This document shows, piece by piece, positions 8,407 to 35,857 of a stretch of 58,031 nt of DNA (positions are counted from its first letter, which is position 1; the number at the start of each line of letters is the position of its first letter). A program made the position numbers and the translations under genes. This DNA is from a virus (taxonomy: Duplodnaviria; Caudoviricetes). Under the pieces are notes generated by a model. That model made no database searches and was not told where the DNA came from. It worked only from the letters and a program-made list of their open reading frames with translations. The DNA is taken from IMG/VR virus record IMGVR_UViG_3300022074_000043, positions 1-58,031 of that record; one strand, written 5' to 3'.

Positions 8407-8616
8407 CTAGCTAAGTGCCGCGCCTATAGCGGTAACCCAAGCAGCGCCTGTGTTGATTACCAAACAATACTCGTTGTTACCAGAACCATTGTCGCTGATT
8501 ACATAAACAGTCCCTTCGGGAACATCCGCGTTTGCTGGAAGGTTCGCAGTTGTAACAACCGGATAAATGAAGGCCGCGTCAGACTTGACGGGACCGGAGA
8601 AAGTAGAACGAGCCAT
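8407..8616 (-). CDS. Putative capsid-associated protein
   Basis: MARSTFSGPVKS N-terminus, AGGAG SD, directly after capsid gene. Confidence 0.6.
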   Translation of the reverse strand: MARSTFSGPVKSDAAFIYPVVTTANLPANADVPEGTVYVISDNGSGNNEYCLVINTGAAWVTAIGAALS

Positions 8617-8679
8617 TTAGATCTCCTGTCGTGGCTAGTGTCAGCCGCACCATGCGACTGTCAGGGATAAGTGATTATA
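8617..8679 (-). promoter_or_regulatory. Candidate -10 box plus structured 5' leader covering the SD
   Basis: TATAAT at 8679-8674; hairpin CAGTCGCA-TGG-TGCGGCTG; ATCCCTG can pair with CAGGAGAT. Confidence 0.4.
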
Positions 8680-23728: not shown

Positions 23729-23755
23729 GAAGGCGGCGCAAGCCGCCTTCTCTTT
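23729..23755 (+). terminator. Rho-independent terminator
   Basis: GAAGGCGGC-GCAA-GCCGCCTTC then TCTTT. Confidence 0.7.
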
Positions 23756-23763
23756 CCGCCAAG

Positions 23764-24258: not shown

Positions 24259-24299
24259 GGCGGCTGTGGTGTTCTCCCTACCACAGCCGCCTTTTTTTT
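24259..24299 (+). terminator. Rho-independent terminator
   Basis: GGCGGCTGTGGT-9nt-ACCACAGCCGCC then T8. Confidence 0.85.
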
Positions 24300-25034: not shown

Positions 25035-25040
25035 GACAGC

Positions 25041-25070
25041 AAGCCTAGCTGGTTTACCAGCTAGGCTTTT
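25041..25070. terminator. Hairpin terminator between convergent genes
   Basis: AAGCCTAGCTGG-TTTA-CCAGCTAGGCTT then TT. Confidence 0.75.
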
Positions 25071-25076
25071 GCTATG

Positions 25077-29997: not shown

Positions 29998-30374
29998 TTA
30001 TACAAGGTGATGGAAGCTGGGAAAAGCTGATGGATTACGGCAGATGTCCAAGGTGCAAGGGCACAGTAAACCAGATCGCAAAGCCACATGCGAAGCGCGA
30101 GTGCGTGTCGTGTGGCCTGACGATAATTGACAACAGCGCACAGTCCTATAAAATAATGGATGATAAACCACAACAGGGGTCTGATATGTACGAGACTAGG
30201 CTGGAAGCCACTGAAGACATGATAGCAGCGGATACTAGAAGTCCGATGTCTTGGTCTGATGCTGTGTCTACAATCGAAAGAGTTCTGGAAGAGTATCTAA
30301 ACGATCCAGAACCAGTCCACCACACGTTAGAGTCAGAGGTACGGGAAGCATGGAACAGGATACTGCGGGGCTAG
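29994..30374 (+). CDS. Zn-ribbon-containing protein
   Basis: CPRC...CVSC. Confidence 0.55.
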   Translation: MIIQGDGSWEKLMDYGRCPRCKGTVNQIAKPHAKRECVSCGLTIIDNSAQSYKIMDDKPQQGSDMYETRLEATEDMIAADTRSPMSWSDAVSTIERVLEEYLNDPEPVHHTLESEVREAWNRILRG

Positions 30375-30754: not shown

Positions 30755-32212
30755 ATGGAATTTAACTACAAAACAAAACCGTATCAACACCAGCATGAAG
30801 CTTTGTTGAGAAGCTACGATAAGGTTAACTACGGTTACTTTATGGAGATGGGCTGTGGTAAATCGAAGGTACTCATCGACAACATGGTCTGGCTGTACGA
30901 ACAGGGCAAGATCGACACCGCCATCGTTGTCGCGCCCAAGGGTGTGTACAGAAACTGGCAGGTATCAGAAATACCGACTCACCTACCAACGGACGTTGAA
31001 CACGAGGTTTATGTTTGGACTCCGTCTCCAAACAAGACCCAAGCTGAACGCCTCAAGGCTGGGGTTGAAGAGCGTGATAAGCTCCGCATCCTGCTGGTTA
31101 ATGTTGAAGGATTTGCAACGCCGAAGGTCAGCAAATTTGTGGGTATGTTCATTCGCGGCGCGTCGTTCCTACTTGCGGTCGATGAATCAACAACTATTAA
31201 GAACCCCAAAGCCAAGCGGACTAAGGCTCTGGTTAGCCTTGGTCAAGAGGCATCGTATCGGCGTATACTTACAGGGTCGCCCGTTACGAAATCGCCGATG
31301 GATTTATACTCGCAATGTGCCTTCATGTCCAAACGACTACTGGGCTTTGAGTCCTACTACGCATTCCAAGGACGTTTTGCAATCACAAGAACACAGCGGA
31401 TGGGCGGTCACAGTTTTCAGCAAATCGTGGGATACAGAAATCTGGAAGAGCTTGCTACCAAGCTGGATACATTCTCGTATCGTGTAACAAAAGATCAGGC
31501 ACTGGATCTGCCAGACAAGATATACACAACCCGCGATGTGTCGCTGACCAAAGAGCAACACGACTATTACATATCCTTGAAAAATGCGGCTATCGCTTTG
31601 CTGGATGATGGTGAACTGGTAACAGCACCGTCTGTAATGACACAGATGCTGCGTCTACAGCAGGTGCTGTGCGGACACGTTATGTCGGACGACGGAGAAC
31701 TGATAGAGTTCCCAACTAAACGAATCGATGCGCTGATGGACACGATAGATGAGATGTCTGGCAAAATAATTATCTGGTCAAGGTTCCGGTACGACATCAA
31801 GAACATAGCCGCCAAGATAGCCAAGGTTCACGGTTCAAGTTCCGTGGTCACATACTTCGGAGATACTTCGGACGATGACAGACAAACGGCAGTTCGCAGG
31901 TTCCAGTTTGAAGATGCGAGGTTCTTTGTGGCAAACCCTCAGACCGCAGGCTATGGCCTGACGCTGACTGCTGCAACCAACGTGATCTATTACGCTAATG
32001 ATTTTAACCTAGAAACACGGGTGCAGTCGGAAGATAGAGCGCACCGTATTGGTCAGGACAAGGCAGTGACATATGTAGATTTGGTAAGTCGGTCTACTAT
32101 TGATGAGTATATAGTCAAGTCTCTTCGCAAGAAGATTGATCTGTCGGCGAAAACTCTTGGGGAAGAAGCTCGTCGGTGGTTAGAGCTAGCACCCCGCCGA
32201 AGTGACGGTTAG
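30755..32212 (+). CDS. SNF2-family (SF2) helicase
   Basis: FMEMGCGKSK, VDEST, ILTGSP, G.GLTLTAA, QSEDRAHRIGQ. Confidence 0.9.
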   Translation: MEFNYKTKPYQHQHEALLRSYDKVNYGYFMEMGCGKSKVLIDNMVWLYEQGKIDTAIVVAPKGVYRNWQVSEIPTHLPTDVEHEVYVWTPSPNKTQAERLKAGVEERDKLRILLVNVEGFATPKVSKFVGMFIRGASFLLAVDESTTIKNPKAKRTKALVSLGQEASYRRILTGSPVTKSPMDLYSQCAFMSKRLLGFESYYAFQGRFAITRTQRMGGHSFQQIVGYRNLEELATKLDTFSYRVTKDQALDLPDKIYTTRDVSLTKEQHDYYISLKNAAIALLDDGELVTAPSVMTQMLRLQQVLCGHVMSDDGELIEFPTKRIDALMDTIDEMSGKIIIWSRFRYDIKNIAAKIAKVHGSSSVVTYFGDTSDDDRQTAVRRFQFEDARFFVANPQTAGYGLTLTAATNVIYYANDFNLETRVQSEDRAHRIGQDKAVTYVDLVSRSTIDEYIVKSLRKKIDLSAKTLGEEARRWLELAPRRSDG

Positions 32213-32619: not shown

Positions 32620-32757
32620 TGGAAATCAGTTGCAGTTTCAATTGACATATACAAATTATTGAAGGCAATGGCAGAGAAGAGCGACAGAAGTGTAAGCAAG
32701 CAGGTCGCGCACATTGTCAAGAAAGAATACGAAGCGGGTAAAAAAATATCCGCTTGA
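32605..32757 (+). CDS. Ribbon-helix-helix (Arc/CopG-like) regulator (50 aa, not in ORF track)
   Basis: MDTDKWKSVAVSIDIYKLLKAMAEKSDRSVSKQVAHIVKKEY; GTG start with AGGAG SD. Confidence 0.7.
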   Translation: MDTDKWKSVAVSIDIYKLLKAMAEKSDRSVSKQVAHIVKKEYEAGKKISA

Positions 32758-32785
32758 CACGGTGATCGCACTCTATAAGATCACC
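32754..32785 (+). promoter_or_regulatory. Replication-operon promoter with overlapping inverted repeat
   Basis: TTGACA-16nt-TAAGAT; GGTGATC-N11-GATCACC. Confidence 0.55.
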
Positions 32786-32829: not shown

Positions 32830-33393
32830 ATGGCTGATTGGTTCCAGCTACTAGACGAGGAAGTCGATGCCGATAAGTTCGACAATGTAGATACGAAAGG
32901 CGCGTCGCGTCTTTCAACTCTAATTCGTGAGTCTATCAAGGCTGACGAAGATATCGCTGCCGCAGAGCAGTATCTAAAAGATCTCAAGTACAAGAAGCGT
33001 AAGATCAACGAAGAAGATATCCCTGCCCTGATGCAAGAGATGGGTGTGGATAGTCTTGAAGTTGATGGCAACAAGATAAAGCTCCGTCAGTTTGTACACG
33101 CCCGTATTACGGACGACAAACGCGATGAAGCTTTTGCTTGGTTACGTTCTATTGGCGAAGGGGACATCATTAAGAATGATGTAACTGTGTCATTTAATAC
33201 CGGACAAGACAATGTGGTGGGGGCAGTCGTAGACGATTTGCGAACACAGGGTCTTGATCCAGTACAGAAGACTCACGTCCATCCACAGACGTTAAAGGCG
33301 TGGGTAAAAAACCGGATAGAGTCGGGAAACGATATCGACTTTGAAACATTCGGTGTGTTTGTAGGAACTGAAGCGAAGATAACTAGGAGCTAG
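32830..33393 (+). CDS. Conserved replication-module protein
   Basis: IP.LM.E.G...AF.WLR..G.GDIIKN...VHPQTLKAWV; precedes SSB-like gene. Confidence 0.75.
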   Translation: MADWFQLLDEEVDADKFDNVDTKGASRLSTLIRESIKADEDIAAAEQYLKDLKYKKRKINEEDIPALMQEMGVDSLEVDGNKIKLRQFVHARITDDKRDEAFAWLRSIGEGDIIKNDVTVSFNTGQDNVVGAVVDDLRTQGLDPVQKTHVHPQTLKAWVKNRIESGNDIDFETFGVFVGTEAKITRS

Positions 33394-33400
33394 AAAGAAG

Positions 33401-34201
33401 ATGGCTGAAACAGCAGTAGCAGAAAAAAAGTCCACGGCTGTGGCAAATATAATTGACGATCTGTACGCGAGTGCAGGTGAAGGTCTGGAGAATGTAACCG
33501 CAGAAGATATGCAGATTCCTTTTCTGCGTATCCTGCAACCTCTGTCACCGCAGTTGAACAAGCAGGACTCAAAGCACATCAAAGGTGCTTCGGGTGGTGA
33601 CCTGTTTAATACTGTGACTGGTGACTTTTGGGATTCGGAGGAAGGCGTGAACGTAATCCCGTGCGCCTACACCATGAAGTATCTGGAGTTCCAGCTACGC
33701 GAAAATGGTGGTGGGTTTATGGGTGAACTGGATCCAAATAGCCCTGACATCCGTAGCACGGAACGTGTCGGTGCTAACGAAATGTTACCATCTGGTAACG
33801 AACTCGTGAGGTCGGCGCAGTTCTTGGTGCTGGCATTCGGTGAAGGCGGTGTACCGCACCAGATGATATGCGATATGAAGAAGACTCAGATGAAGATCGC
33901 CAAGCAGTGGAATACCCGCCGCGCTGGCATGAAGATCATGCATCCAGAAAAGGGTTTGTTCACACCACCTATGTGGGCCACTGTGTGGAAGCTGACCTCT
34001 GTGCAGGAGAGTAACGACAAAGGTTCGTGGTTCAACTACCAGATAGCGCAGGGCGATATCCAGAAGGTAGATCCTGCTATCGTAACCCAAGCCCGTGACT
34101 TGTATAACCAGTTTAAGAAGGGCGAGATCAAGACAGCCGCAGGCACGGCTGATGAAATGAACCAGTCTACTTCGGACATTGGAGACGATGTACCGTTTTA
34201 A
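33401..34201 (+). CDS. Putative single-stranded DNA-binding protein
   Basis: GLEN....D..IPFL.ILQ.LSPQ...N.KG.WF; acidic tail DDVPF. Confidence 0.65.
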   Translation: MAETAVAEKKSTAVANIIDDLYASAGEGLENVTAEDMQIPFLRILQPLSPQLNKQDSKHIKGASGGDLFNTVTGDFWDSEEGVNVIPCAYTMKYLEFQLRENGGGFMGELDPNSPDIRSTERVGANEMLPSGNELVRSAQFLVLAFGEGGVPHQMICDMKKTQMKIAKQWNTRRAGMKIMHPEKGLFTPPMWATVWKLTSVQESNDKGSWFNYQIAQGDIQKVDPAIVTQARDLYNQFKKGEIKTAAGTADEMNQSTSDIGDDVPF

Positions 34202-34202
34202 T

Positions 34203-34314
34203 TCGCGGACGTTATGAGCGCAGTCAGGGGATGCGTTAAGGTTGATTAGTTCCGCGATGGTGGCTAACAACACCGATTAAGCTAATCAACCACCCCTGCA
34301 TAACCAACATGGGG
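34203..34314 (+). ncRNA. Candidate structured RNA / cis-regulatory leader of primase
   Basis: Four nested stems plus two additional complementary pairs (see findings). Confidence 0.55.
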
Positions 34315-34321
34315 CAGACCA

Positions 34322-35857
34322 ATGAACATAGATGAACAGTTCATGGCTGCGTTTGAAGGCTTCGGCGCGGCACATGGACAGACACAAATATCTGATGAAC
34401 GACGGGCTGGCAAACAGAAAGCCAAGTCGTACATCGTAAGGAAGCCACTAACATTAGATTTGATTCGGGCACACCTACAGGGGTTGAATGGTGTTGGATC
34501 TATTCCTATCAACGAACACAACAAGTGCAAGTTTGGCGCTCTTGATATTGACCAGTATCCTCTTGATCTGGTGGCAATAGACAAGAAGCTGCGGGGTATG
34601 GAAGTACCCTGCGTTGTATGTAGGAGTAAGTCCGGCGGTGCCCATATATTCTTTTTCTTTAGTGATTGGATTAGCGCAGGAGAGTTGCGTGACAAAGCGT
34701 CAGAGATTGCTGCCTATCTTGGATACGGTGGCTGTGAGATATTCCCAAAGCAAGAACAGATTCTTGTCGAGCGTGGCGATGTTGGTAACTTTATTAACCT
34801 TCCGTACTTTGATGCGGAACAGACTCTCCGCTACGCGATTGACGAAGATGGCGAACCCGCATCGTTAGAAAGATTCCTTGAACTTGTCAGTGCCAGATCT
34901 GTAAACCCAAATGTTTTTGTTGGTTTGACGTTTGGTGAACAGGTTGATGAGTTTGCGGAGTGGTCCCCCTGCCTGAACTGCATGTTCGGGCAGGGGATAC
35001 CTGAAGGTACGCGCAACACAGTTATGTTTGCGGCGGCAGTAGCATGTAAAAAAGAAAAGCCAGAAAGCTGGAAGCAGCGTCTGGAAGAAATCAACATGAA
35101 GTACTGCACCCCACCCTTGCCAGCTACAGAGATCGTGACGATTCAGCAGCAGCATGAAAAGAAAGAGTACGGCTTTCCGTGTGATCAAGAGCCACTGAAG
35201 TCGTTCTGCAACAAGAGTCTATGCAAGACAAAGAAGTATGGTATCGGGTCCAGCGTCACTAGCGTTGAGGTCACGGGTCTATGCGTCGTTAAGTCTGAGC
35301 CACCTGTGTGGTTCTGTGACGTAGGCGGGAAGCGTGTCGAGCTAACAACAGACGATCTACAAACACCACAGCGTTTTCAAAAGGCATGCATGGAACAAAT
35401 ACATATCATGCCACCAATGATGAAAATCGCTGACTGGCAAGTCATTGTGTCGGCAATGATGGAAGATATGAGTGAGATAGAAGTGCCGGAAGAACTGACA
35501 TACAAGGGTCAGTTCATGGATCTGCTTGAAGCGTTCTGTGACGGCAGAGTACAAGCACAGTCCGCTGAAGAGCTAGCACTGGGCAAGCCGTTCACTGATG
35601 ACGAAGAGGGCAAAACATTCTTCAAACTTGAAGCATTGATTAAGTATCTACGAAACAACAAGTTTGATAGCTACAGTCGTGGTCAGATACAGGAACGCCT
35701 GAAAGAATTAAATATTGATGGTACAGCCAATGGACAGAAAAGATTCAACACAAGCAGGGGAGACACTAAGCCTATGCGCGTGTGGTGGGTGCCATCATTC
35801 AGTACCGAGGTTCAAGTACCAAGGATCGATGTCGGGGAAAACGAGGTGCCATTCTAA
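34322..35857 (+). CDS. Archaeo-eukaryotic-type primase with PriCT-like domain
   Basis: HL.G..G.G..P......CKFGALDID, RSKSGGAH.F.F, EIFPKQ, GNFINLPYF, G.RN..MF. Confidence 0.8.
   Translation: MNIDEQFMAAFEGFGAAHGQTQISDERRAGKQKAKSYIVRKPLTLDLIRAHLQGLNGVGSIPINEHNKCKFGALDIDQYPLDLVAIDKKLRGMEVPCVVCRSKSGGAHIFFFFSDWISAGELRDKASEIAAYLGYGGCEIFPKQEQILVERGDVGNFINLPYFDAEQTLRYAIDEDGEPASLERFLELVSARSVNPNVFVGLTFGEQVDEFAEWSPCLNCMFGQGIPEGTRNTVMFAAAVACKKEKPESWKQRLEEINMKYCTPPLPATEIVTIQQQHEKKEYGFPCDQEPLKSFCNKSLCKTKKYGIGSSVTSVEVTGLCVVKSEPPVWFCDVGGKRVELTTDDLQTPQRFQKACMEQIHIMPPMMKIADWQVIVSAMMEDMSEIEVPEELTYKGQFMDLLEAFCDGRVQAQSAEELALGKPFTDDEEGKTFFKLEALIKYLRNNKFDSYSRGQIQERLKELNIDGTANGQKRFNTSRGDTKPMRVWWVPSFSTEVQVPRIDVGENEVPF

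Follow-up and report, generated by a model that had tools for sequence, protein, structure and literature searches.

What occupies the 120 nt that separate two genes of an otherwise tightly packed phage replication operon? In the window analyzed here, that is, the whole stretch of DNA given by virus record IMGVR_UViG_3300022074_000043 (58,031 bp; 99% complete by completeness estimate), the gene of a protein similar to Pam3 gp34 ends with a stop codon at 34199-34201, and the ATG of the primase gene lies at 34322. The gap between them (34202-34321) stands out in its surroundings, as had been pointed out in an initial annotation made from the sequence alone: the gp34-like gene is separated from the preceding gene by 7 nt, and the primase gene overlaps the open reading frame (ORF) of the helicase. 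The annotation had read six helices into this gap, together with a CCCC tract (34293-34296) that could pair with the GGGG tract before the primase gene, and every one of these strings is found at its coordinate. The helices were named by layer; P5, S2, P3, and P4 form the nested layer A, and S0 and S1 form layer B (Table 1). As judged by comparison with related loci, the element is a real, conserved, and covarying sense-strand RNA structure that matches no catalogued family. A search of Rfam 15 with positions 33700 to 34800 on both strands gave no match at an E value of ≤10, and a scan of the window plus 13 related loci found no family above its gathering score at this site, the sole hit being Mu-gpT-DE elsewhere in the window, which agrees with the annotation's failure to recognize a known class.

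Covariation of the gap helices in relatives

Six sequences of the window clade were aligned with MAFFT, and both layers were written in brackets, giving 41 pairs and 246 cells. Standard pairs fill 94.7% of these cells, compared with 90.2% in shuffles (0 of 500 reach the observed value), and sliding the partners by 1 to 3 columns drops pairing to 37 to 45%. Changes on both sides are seen in 7 of the 41 pairs, a count reached by 5 of 500 shuffles, and the covariation score is 0.192 versus 0.102 in the controls (0 of 500 shuffles). As seen in Table 1, where relatives' loci are labeled by L-numbers, these changes can be followed helix by helix. Between the window and L001, the flanking genes differ by ~3 to 6%, and the gap has only two differences, 34214 A>G and 34301 T>C, which together make up one compensatory P5 pair. 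Both the nested stems and the extra pairings that the initial annotation had drawn between their bulges therefore covary in relatives.

Table 1. Features of the gap and of its surroundings in the window; changes and paired cells are those of the six-sequence alignment
Feature	Coordinates	Strand	Sequence, basis, or remark	Changes	Cells paired
Helix S0	34203-34209 / 34251-34257	+	TCGCGGA / TCCGCGA, from sequence; crosses P3 and S2	1 both-sided (A-U to G-C, window vs L004 group); no other	100%
Helix P5	34211-34216 / 34299-34304	+	GTTATG / CATAAC; closes nested layer; specific to window clade	1 both-sided; broken in L004 group in this register	66.7%
Hairpin S1	34217-34222 / 34232-34237	+	AGCGCA / TGCGTT; one G.T; 9-nt loop GTCAGGGGA presents G-run	1 both-sided; 1 one-sided	97.2%
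Core helix S2	34225-34230 / 34293-34298	+	G-run CAGGGG / C-run CCCCTG; element kept family-wide	1 both-sided (A-U to G-C); no other	100%
Hairpin P3	34240-34250 / 34281-34291	+	arms as annotated: GGTTGATTAGTT (34240-34251) / AGCTAATCAACC (34280-34291), one T.G	0 both-sided; 1 one-sided (A-U to G.U)	100%
Apical hairpin P4	34259-34262 / 34271-34274	+	GGTG / CACC; carried by P3	3 both-sided; 1 one-sided	100%
A/C-rich spacer (part of AACCAAC), Shine-Dalgarno-like GGGG (34311-34314), start codon (34322-34324)	34305-34324	+	from sequence		
SNF2 helicase gene	30755-32212	+	gene order around gap		
DUF7307 (Pam3 gp33-like) gene	32830-33393	+	gene order around gap		
Pam3 gp34-like gene, 266 aa	33401-34201	+	Pfam PF23977, E 2.3e-58; PHROG 2402, function unknown		
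AEP-type primase gene, 511 aa	34322-35857	+	PF22548, E 2.6e-15; PHROG 21866 primase, E 4.2e-85		
UvrD-type helicase, then family A DNA polymerase (PolA) genes			3' of primase		

Within the window, the 5' strand of S0 begins 1 nt past the stop codon and its 3' strand directly follows the 5' arm of P3; between P3 and the C-run there is a single A (34292). The sequence after the stem is CATAACCAACATGG, with no U-tract. The motif AACCAACNNGGGG has no second copy in the window at 0 mismatches. An 18-nt motif of the 3' part has exact copies in 37 IMG/VR contigs.

A search with the gp34-like protein yielded 60 IMG/VR loci and 43 metagenome loci, 33 of the latter yielding the gap. With two GenBank records, DSL-LC04 and 023Pt_psg01, this gave 45 unique gaps, in which primase starts were set by aligning N-termini. 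The primase gene comes next in every extracted gap, and gap length ranges from 31 to 226 nt. For the core-helix test, run on 38 unique gaps, the best helix with a 3' arm ending 12 to 36 nt before the ATG was compared with 300 dinucleotide shuffles. This ATG-proximal helix beats at least 95% of the shuffles in 30 of the 38 gaps (median fraction, 0.007), and its 3' arm then ends 18 to 34 nt before the primase ATG. The 95% level was not reached by L006 (0.06), by L012, L013, L014, L018, L044, and L046, which are long forms with short gapless stems, or by L056, whose hairpin covers the Shine-Dalgarno (SD) sequence and hence lies outside the searched positions. In short forms, the stem is GC-rich and 8 to 13 bp long; its 5' arm starts 5 to 9 nt past the stop codon, and it ends 18 to 32 nt before the ATG. 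The polarity is the same throughout the relatives, with a G-rich 5' arm and a C-rich 3' arm. The arm pairs differ widely (GGGGGCGGGG/CCCTGCCCCC, GGAGCAGGGT/ACCCTGCTCC, TTGGGGTGTCGT/ACGGCACCCCAA, and AGGAAGACCGCG/CGCGGTCTTCCT; in the GenBank phages, CGCCGGGG/CCCCGGCG in DSL-LC04 and AGGGGGATT/GATCCCCCT in 023Pt_psg01), and one core position is G.U in L091, A-U in L037, and G-C in others. The S2 helix of the window is the local form of this universal G-run/C-run core. The stem conservation and covariation on which the initial annotation had staked its proposal are thus seen both inside the clade and far beyond it.

The interior of the element varies from a few nucleotides to ~170 nt across relatives. 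One and the same 12-bp stem, TTGGGGTGTCGT/RCGGCACCCCAA, encloses a loop of 14 nt in L052 (2855-2922), 135 nt in L051 (3769-3957), and 170 nt in L055 (3769-3992); the large insertions in L051 and L055 sit exactly within the hairpin loop and leave the stem intact. We also observed a loop, TCTAGGTAT-N-AACTAAC, that is common to L037 (2492-2564), L049 (1968-2035), and L052 despite wholly different stems, and which may carry a signal of its own. Because of this loop sequence, a narrow covariance model built from six near-identical L037-type gaps and run over the 45 sources matched L049 and L052 in addition to those six, along with weak reverse-strand or unrelated matches. From 23 short-form gaps, MAFFT with RNAalifold retrieved no more than 4 pairs, since the 3' arms were misaligned, and a second MAFFT subset was out of register too. 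The relatives' helices were compared by anchor-based scripts in place of covariance models.

The long-form plan is seen in the window, L001, the L004 group, L012/L118, L013/L018/L114, L014/L079/L111 and others, L044/L077, and L046, and in part in L026. At least seven long-gap lineages add S0, S1, and P3 to the core helix, at fixed positions and with differing sequences. S1 is 5 to 7 bp long in 7 of 8 long-form lineages and 3 bp only in L046; it begins 14 to 18 nt past the stop codon in most lineages, and its arms comprise at least six sequences, such as AGCGCA/TGCGTT, GCGTAG/CTGCGT, TACGCCT/AGGCGTA, GGTGTT/AGCATC, TTTGCCT/AGGCAAA, and CTGCTG/CAGCAG. Because MAFFT placed the lineages in different registers over this region, S1 was tested by script, with shuffle fractions per lineage of 0.06, 0.07, 0.0004, 0.05, 0.006, 0.0002, 0.67 (L046), and 0.02. 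In 12 of 15 long-form sequences, P3 reaches 7 bp or more and keeps the single-A linker, with six different arm pairs; the gapless search missed L044/L077, where the stem is interrupted, and chose the wrong C-run in L026. Ten of 14 long-form representatives have an S0-like helix of 6 bp or more, as ten different sequence pairs with individual shuffle fractions of 0.012 to 0.116. Its 5' strand starts 0 to 5 nt past the stop codon, and its 3' strand falls within the P3 loop, 0 to 14 nt downstream of the P3 5' arm. The gapless search did not find S0 in L026/L113, whose 5' hairpin is of another kind, or in L014/L111, where a bulged version is visible by eye. L002 and L003, whose upstream protein is 91% identical to that of the window, are without S0, P3, and P4.

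Strand and probable pseudoknot topology

The plus strand is more stable than its complement in 32 of the 45 unique gaps (mean, −4.0 kcal/mol; Wilcoxon P = 2e-4, for sequences that are not independent). Moreover, some changes give G.U pairs on the plus strand that correspond to A.C mismatches on the other strand, and the ends of the element follow the stop codon and the ribosome-binding site (RBS). From these comparisons we concluded that the element is probably a sense-strand RNA feature, as the initial annotation had supposed from its G-U pairs, with single-stranded DNA of the plus strand as a formal alternative.

Layers A and B cross, yet they use different nucleotides except for T34251, and other lineages show the same separation. 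The helices of a switch usually compete for shared bases; since the two layers do not, a single fold with two pseudoknots is simpler than a switch. We consider that the fold is most likely a compact double pseudoknot, in which S1 is combined with S2 in H-type geometry and S0 with P3. If the CA paired in S2 is disregarded, the S1 loop consists of the S2 strand with 1 to 2 nt on its 5' side and 0 to 1 nt on its 3' side, and such junction lengths between the S1 loop and S2 are those of a classical H-type pseudoknot. The predicted H-type arrangement (a loop 1 of 1 to 2 nt over a stem 2 of 6 to 8 bp, a junction of 0 to 1 nt, and a loop 3 of sufficient length for stem 1) can be traced in the sequences of 7 of 8 lineages, and both of its stems covary. 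In the nested model, layer A has an energy of −32.0 kcal/mol, and S0, S1, and P4 with the C-run paired to the SD have −27.8 kcal/mol; summing gives about −33.5 kcal/mol for S1 and P3/P4 with the C-run paired to the SD. Some conformational alternation is conceivable because these nested energies are close and because, by steric reasoning, P5 could not coexist with a coaxial S1-S2 stack. Of the pseudoknot or switch potential named in the initial annotation, the pseudoknot gains from the crossing layers and their geometry, and the switch is weakened.

The steric conflict of P5 is one of several points that count against this reading. The fold energies come from ViennaRNA, whose nested model contains no pseudoknots. 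Folding energy alone is weak evidence, and it is the comparison with relatives that carries the case: a 132-nt stretch with the gap folds at −36.7 kcal/mol, which falls short of significance (z, −1.57; 17 of 200 shuffles are as stable; reverse strand, z, −0.78), and the sole outlier by folding energy is the inner hairpin at 34240-34291 (z, −4.69; 0 of 200 shuffles as stable). Shuffled controls, which the initial annotation had invoked, thus speak for the inner hairpin and not for the whole stretch. The covariation within the window clade rests on two deep lineages, so that its counts represent few events, and the shuffle controls overstate significance because the sequences are related. RNA-labeled sequencing runs contain 0.06 to 0.07 of the sequence words. 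The contigs from RNA libraries (X1, 34459-34672; X2, 34267-34417; X3, 33401-33575; X4, 34295-34447, 34475-34791, and 34625-34661) include none that covers the whole element, no RNA ends can be read from them, and they may stem from DNA carry-over.

Proposed role at the primase ribosome-binding site

What might such a fold do? We see about an even chance that it acts in cis as a post-transcriptional control of primase expression relative to the upstream gene, whose product is called SSB-like here after single-stranded DNA-binding protein (SSB). The polycistronic mRNA would carry the fold from the stop codon of the SSB-like gene to ~20 nt before the primase RBS, and the fold would hold the C-run occupied. 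A ribosome that terminates on the upstream gene would cover the base of the fold, and so, we infer, upstream translation would have to open it. The fold may in this way set the output of primase, and thereby of helicase and PolA, relative to the SSB-like protein; we infer both the effect and its direction.

The primase SD has a complement in the C-run, 12 to 19 nt upstream; their pairing alone is worth −6.2 kcal/mol. The C-run stays beside the SD where the main hairpin uses other bases (L008 and L021/24/32), and there the minimum free energy (MFE) structure pairs the C-run with the SD. Masking the sequence up to the 5' arm lowers the predicted SD accessibility by >0.1 in 17 of 45 gaps; in 5 of 45, the accessibility rises. 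These accessibility predictions, which are thermodynamic and made without pseudoknots, lend modest support to translational control. Set against this, complementarity of the C-run to the SD is weak evidence because C-rich arms pair with any G-rich SD by composition. The mean SD accessibility of the relatives is 0.19, compared with a median of 0.46 over 54 window genes, although the gene sets differ, and the primase SD of the window is ordinary, its accessibility of 0.29 being the 11th lowest of the 54. The pairing of CCCC with the SD that the initial annotation had suggested could thus form, but it leaves the accessibility of the window SD unremarkable.

The shortest gaps (31 to 32 nt) have a form of their own. 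In L056 (2019-2056) and L099 (2005-2041), a single hairpin, ATCTGCTCTTTGC/GTAGGGGGCAGAT, takes in the SD and extends as far as the ATG, and the primase RBS would therefore be directly sequestered; in L057, the SD likewise lies inside the hairpin.

A GC-rich stem after the SSB-like gene could also act on the mRNA itself, as a barrier to decay by 3' exonucleases or as a transcription attenuator, so that the upstream mRNA would outlast or outnumber the part for primase, helicase, and polymerase, and the extra helices would add stability only. We regard this as less likely but plausible, since the universal part of the element is a simple GC-rich stem of 8 to 13 bp directly past the stop codon, and since the most distant IMG/VR relatives, L059 and L060, have TTCTTTTT right after the stem, as in a canonical intrinsic terminator; an attenuator ancestry or role is accordingly possible in some lineages. 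The terminators of the window near 23.7, 24.3, and 25.05 kb also have the same polarity of G-rich and C-rich arms, and in the window S2 with P3 supplies the GC-rich stem-loop of the element. The likeness extends to the intercistronic attenuator hairpin between rplL and rpoB of Escherichia coli, which, as here, is a GC-rich stem with a G-rich 5' arm after a gene whose product is probably needed abundantly. However, the tail is A/C-rich and lacks a U-tract in the window and most lineages, whereas U-tract terminators are present elsewhere in the genome; the element is for this reason not a canonical terminator in the window, and a terminator scan finds no site in the gap. Stability alone would also leave unexplained the tight junctions and the covariation of S0, S1, and P3 at specific positions, where helices cross the stem, as they do not in such terminators and attenuators. 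An RNase III site is a near-continuous duplex of ~20 bp, or two turns; the stems of the family have 8 to 13 bp, and stacked P5, S2, P3, and P4 of the window would give 28 bp with internal loops.

A pseudoknot might instead be a translational operator that nucleates binding of the SSB-like or another phage protein, which would then spread over the spacer and RBS, so that excess free protein shuts off the replisome genes much as in T4 gene 32, but on the next gene. In the T4 gene 32 operator, a folded pseudoknot precedes a less structured stretch with the RBS, as described in PMC535899, and the predicted fold at 34203-34304 repeats that layout of the T4 and RB69 operators, with a pseudoknot 5' of a less structured RBS stretch and an SSB-like gene adjacent. 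The upstream protein is weakly similar to the gp32 core and has an acidic DDVPF tail. This explanation is nevertheless quite improbable: control would fall on a gene other than that of the SSB, the T4 operator lying upstream of its own SSB gene and the element downstream of the SSB-like gene and upstream of primase; UUAAA/UAAA repeats are absent from 34305-34321; short forms are plain hairpins; and the SSB assignment is weak, with no PDB match at an E value of ≤0.001. The T4 operator is ~28 nt long, compared with ~100 nt and four to six helices here, and the two have no sequence or Rfam match. We judge it very unlikely that a DNA-level hairpin serves as a replication origin or a primase recognition site. 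It would adjoin the primase gene, CCCCTGC occurs six times in the 58 kb (four times within 34293-35760, on both strands), and the primase gene itself contains another conserved hairpin, which has a related motif; yet the cumulative GC skew, which turns at ~24 to 26 kb and ~40 kb with gene orientation, has no turn at 34.2 kb, the G.T pairs favor the sense strand, the ends track the stop codon and RBS and no DNA landmark, and the count of CCCCTGC is near chance in the whole window (6 versus 5.0 expected). As for the ligand-sensing riboswitch or self-cleaving ribozyme that the initial annotation had in mind, a leader of ~100 nt that is pseudoknotted and almost fully paired would suit either, and C-run:SD pairing could be the expression platform, with conformers ~4 kcal/mol apart. 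We give this little credence, given the empty Rfam search, which took in all catalogued riboswitch and ribozyme models, the hypervariable interior, and the lack of S0, P3, and P4 in L002/L003 despite their 91% identical upstream protein. The columns invariant in the 15 long-form sequences lie only in the G-run, the C-run with its GC, the spacer, the SD, and the ATG, so that no core resembling a ligand pocket is conserved; the A/C-rich spacer (frequently AACCAAC) and the SD (GGGG or GGAG) are kept in many lineages. Models of self-cleaving ribozymes (HDV-like, twister, hammerhead, pistol, and hatchet) give no match at an E value of ≤10, and the helix order of the element, S0a-S1-P3a-S0b-P4-P3b, also differs from the P1-P2-P3-P1'-P4-P2' order of the hepatitis delta virus (HDV) ribozyme.

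Some further candidates were rejected. CCCCTGC as an iteron or origin motif fails on its near-chance count and on its positions in relatives, which are mostly those of the two hairpins. A read-through or frameshift fusion of the two genes is contradicted by the lack of a constant frame among the gaps and by an in-frame TAG at 34247-34249. A promoter scan finds no promoter inside the element, and a weak candidate seen by eye, TTGATT-17-TAACAA, is not kept in L004; nor is a small ORF of 11 codons (ATG at 34215).

The proposed control of primase output by the element can also be placed beside other structured leaders. The E. coli alpha-operon S4 site is likewise a leader of ~100 nt with crossing helices beside the RBS, but it holds the RBS and start codon inside the fold, whereas the RBS of the element lies outside, and context and sequence are unrelated. 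Like the phage motif Mu-gpT-DE (RF03012), the element is a structured RNA that is conserved, keeps a set distance from a phage gene, and is known only comparatively; the gene context and structure are different, and the Mu-gpT-DE model has no match at the element. Among the papers listed by literature searches, none describes this element in its title or abstract opening.

Examples of phage replication genes under the control of a structured RNA come from very few model phages, with T4 gene 32 as the classic case. The present element recurs in an abundant, uncultured group of marine phages, has unusually rich covariation for its size, and is represented among close relatives by a natural deletion series that runs from a plain hairpin to a multi-helix fold. 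It is a candidate for a new RNA family entry, and it would be ordinary if it were merely a stabilizing hairpin with decorations. If control of the primase to SSB-like ratio is true, it would show how stoichiometric and catalytic parts of a replisome are balanced within one operon. An improbable extension is that the long form is a double-pseudoknot sensor of ~100 nt that gates the replisome genes through the SSB-like protein, terminating ribosomes, or self-cleavage; if true, the regulatory RNAs of phages would gain a new class, present in many marine viral contigs, and the route through the SSB-like protein would mean that the logic of autoregulation had been moved onto primase.

Neighboring genes and other structures in the window

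The plus-strand genes from ~23.4 to 39.9 kb form the replication module. A sigma-70-like promoter match, TTGACA-16-TAAGAT (10/12), lies at 32754-32781 (+), just 5' of the gp33-like gene, and the genes around the gap are therefore plausibly on one transcript. The total of sigma-70-like sites in the promoter scan is not above that of shuffles. The other best match in 28 to 42 kb is TTGACA-16-TAAAAT (11/12) at 30127-30154 (+).

Of the two gene labels in the initial annotation, primase holds, as an AEP-type enzyme, and SSB is weakly supported for what is a Pam3 gp34-like protein (PF23977). The C-terminus of this protein (...SDIGDDVPF) is an acidic tail ending in DDVPF, which we take to resemble the acidic tip of bacterial SSB. 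Its AlphaFold2 model (predicted local distance difference test [pLDDT], 70.9) has a beta-rich fold. Foldseek found no PDB structure match to the model at an E value of ≤0.001; the weak matches are mostly single-stranded DNA binders with an oligonucleotide/oligosaccharide-binding (OB) fold, including the T4 gp32 core (1gpc; E, 0.072; probability, 0.82) and RB69 gp32 (E, 0.062; probability, 0.77). In BFVD, there are 39 matches at an E value of ≤0.001, mostly unnamed; proteins named single-stranded DNA-binding protein appear at ranks 22 and 33 and, with an E value of 1.5e-3, at rank 44 (range, 2.5e-4 to 1.5e-3). A PDB sequence search with the protein gave 0 matches at an E value of ≤1. Because the PDB matches are weak and the BFVD matches mostly unnamed, an SSB-like protein with an OB fold is plausible but not established; the protein may represent an unrecognized family of phage SSBs.

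The nearest named records are metagenome-assembled phages, DSL-LC04 (39.7% primase identity), described as such in PMC10611076, and 023Pt_psg01 (37.1%). A DNA search of a phage collection with 33401-35857 gave only two matches of 55 to 60 nt, inside primase genes of Acinetobacter phages. ARAGORN found no tRNA or tmRNA in the window.

Three strong GC-rich hairpins followed by T-tracts on the plus strand, at about 23730-23760, 24259-24295, and 25040-25075, where the plus-strand module starts, resemble canonical terminators or attenuators. A second conserved hairpin lies inside the primase coding sequence at 34966-34996 (+), over the codons of PCLNCMFGQG; its arms, CCCCTGCCTGAAC/GTTCGGGCAGGGG, form 13 bp around a 5-nt loop, and a 66-nt stretch around it folds at about −33 kcal/mol. 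Among 18 distinct relatives encoding the same peptide, 99.6% of 234 cells are paired, a count that left out 15 sequences encoding PCLSH..., PCLSC...A.., or other variants, which lack the hairpin. Two pairs at third codon positions are compensatory (AU 7, CG 6, GC 3, UG 1, and unpaired 1; CG 16 and UA 2), 0 of 500 shuffles reach the covariation score, and the U.G pairs favor the plus strand. The motif CCCTGC/GCAGGG is found in relatives at fixed offsets from the primase ATG (−30, +645/+668, and +1222), mostly in the gap hairpin and in this one. Finally, the structural module of the window contains a full-length copy of Mu-gpT-DE at 8614-8666 (−), with a score of 74.3 bits (gathering score, 49; E, 4e-15).

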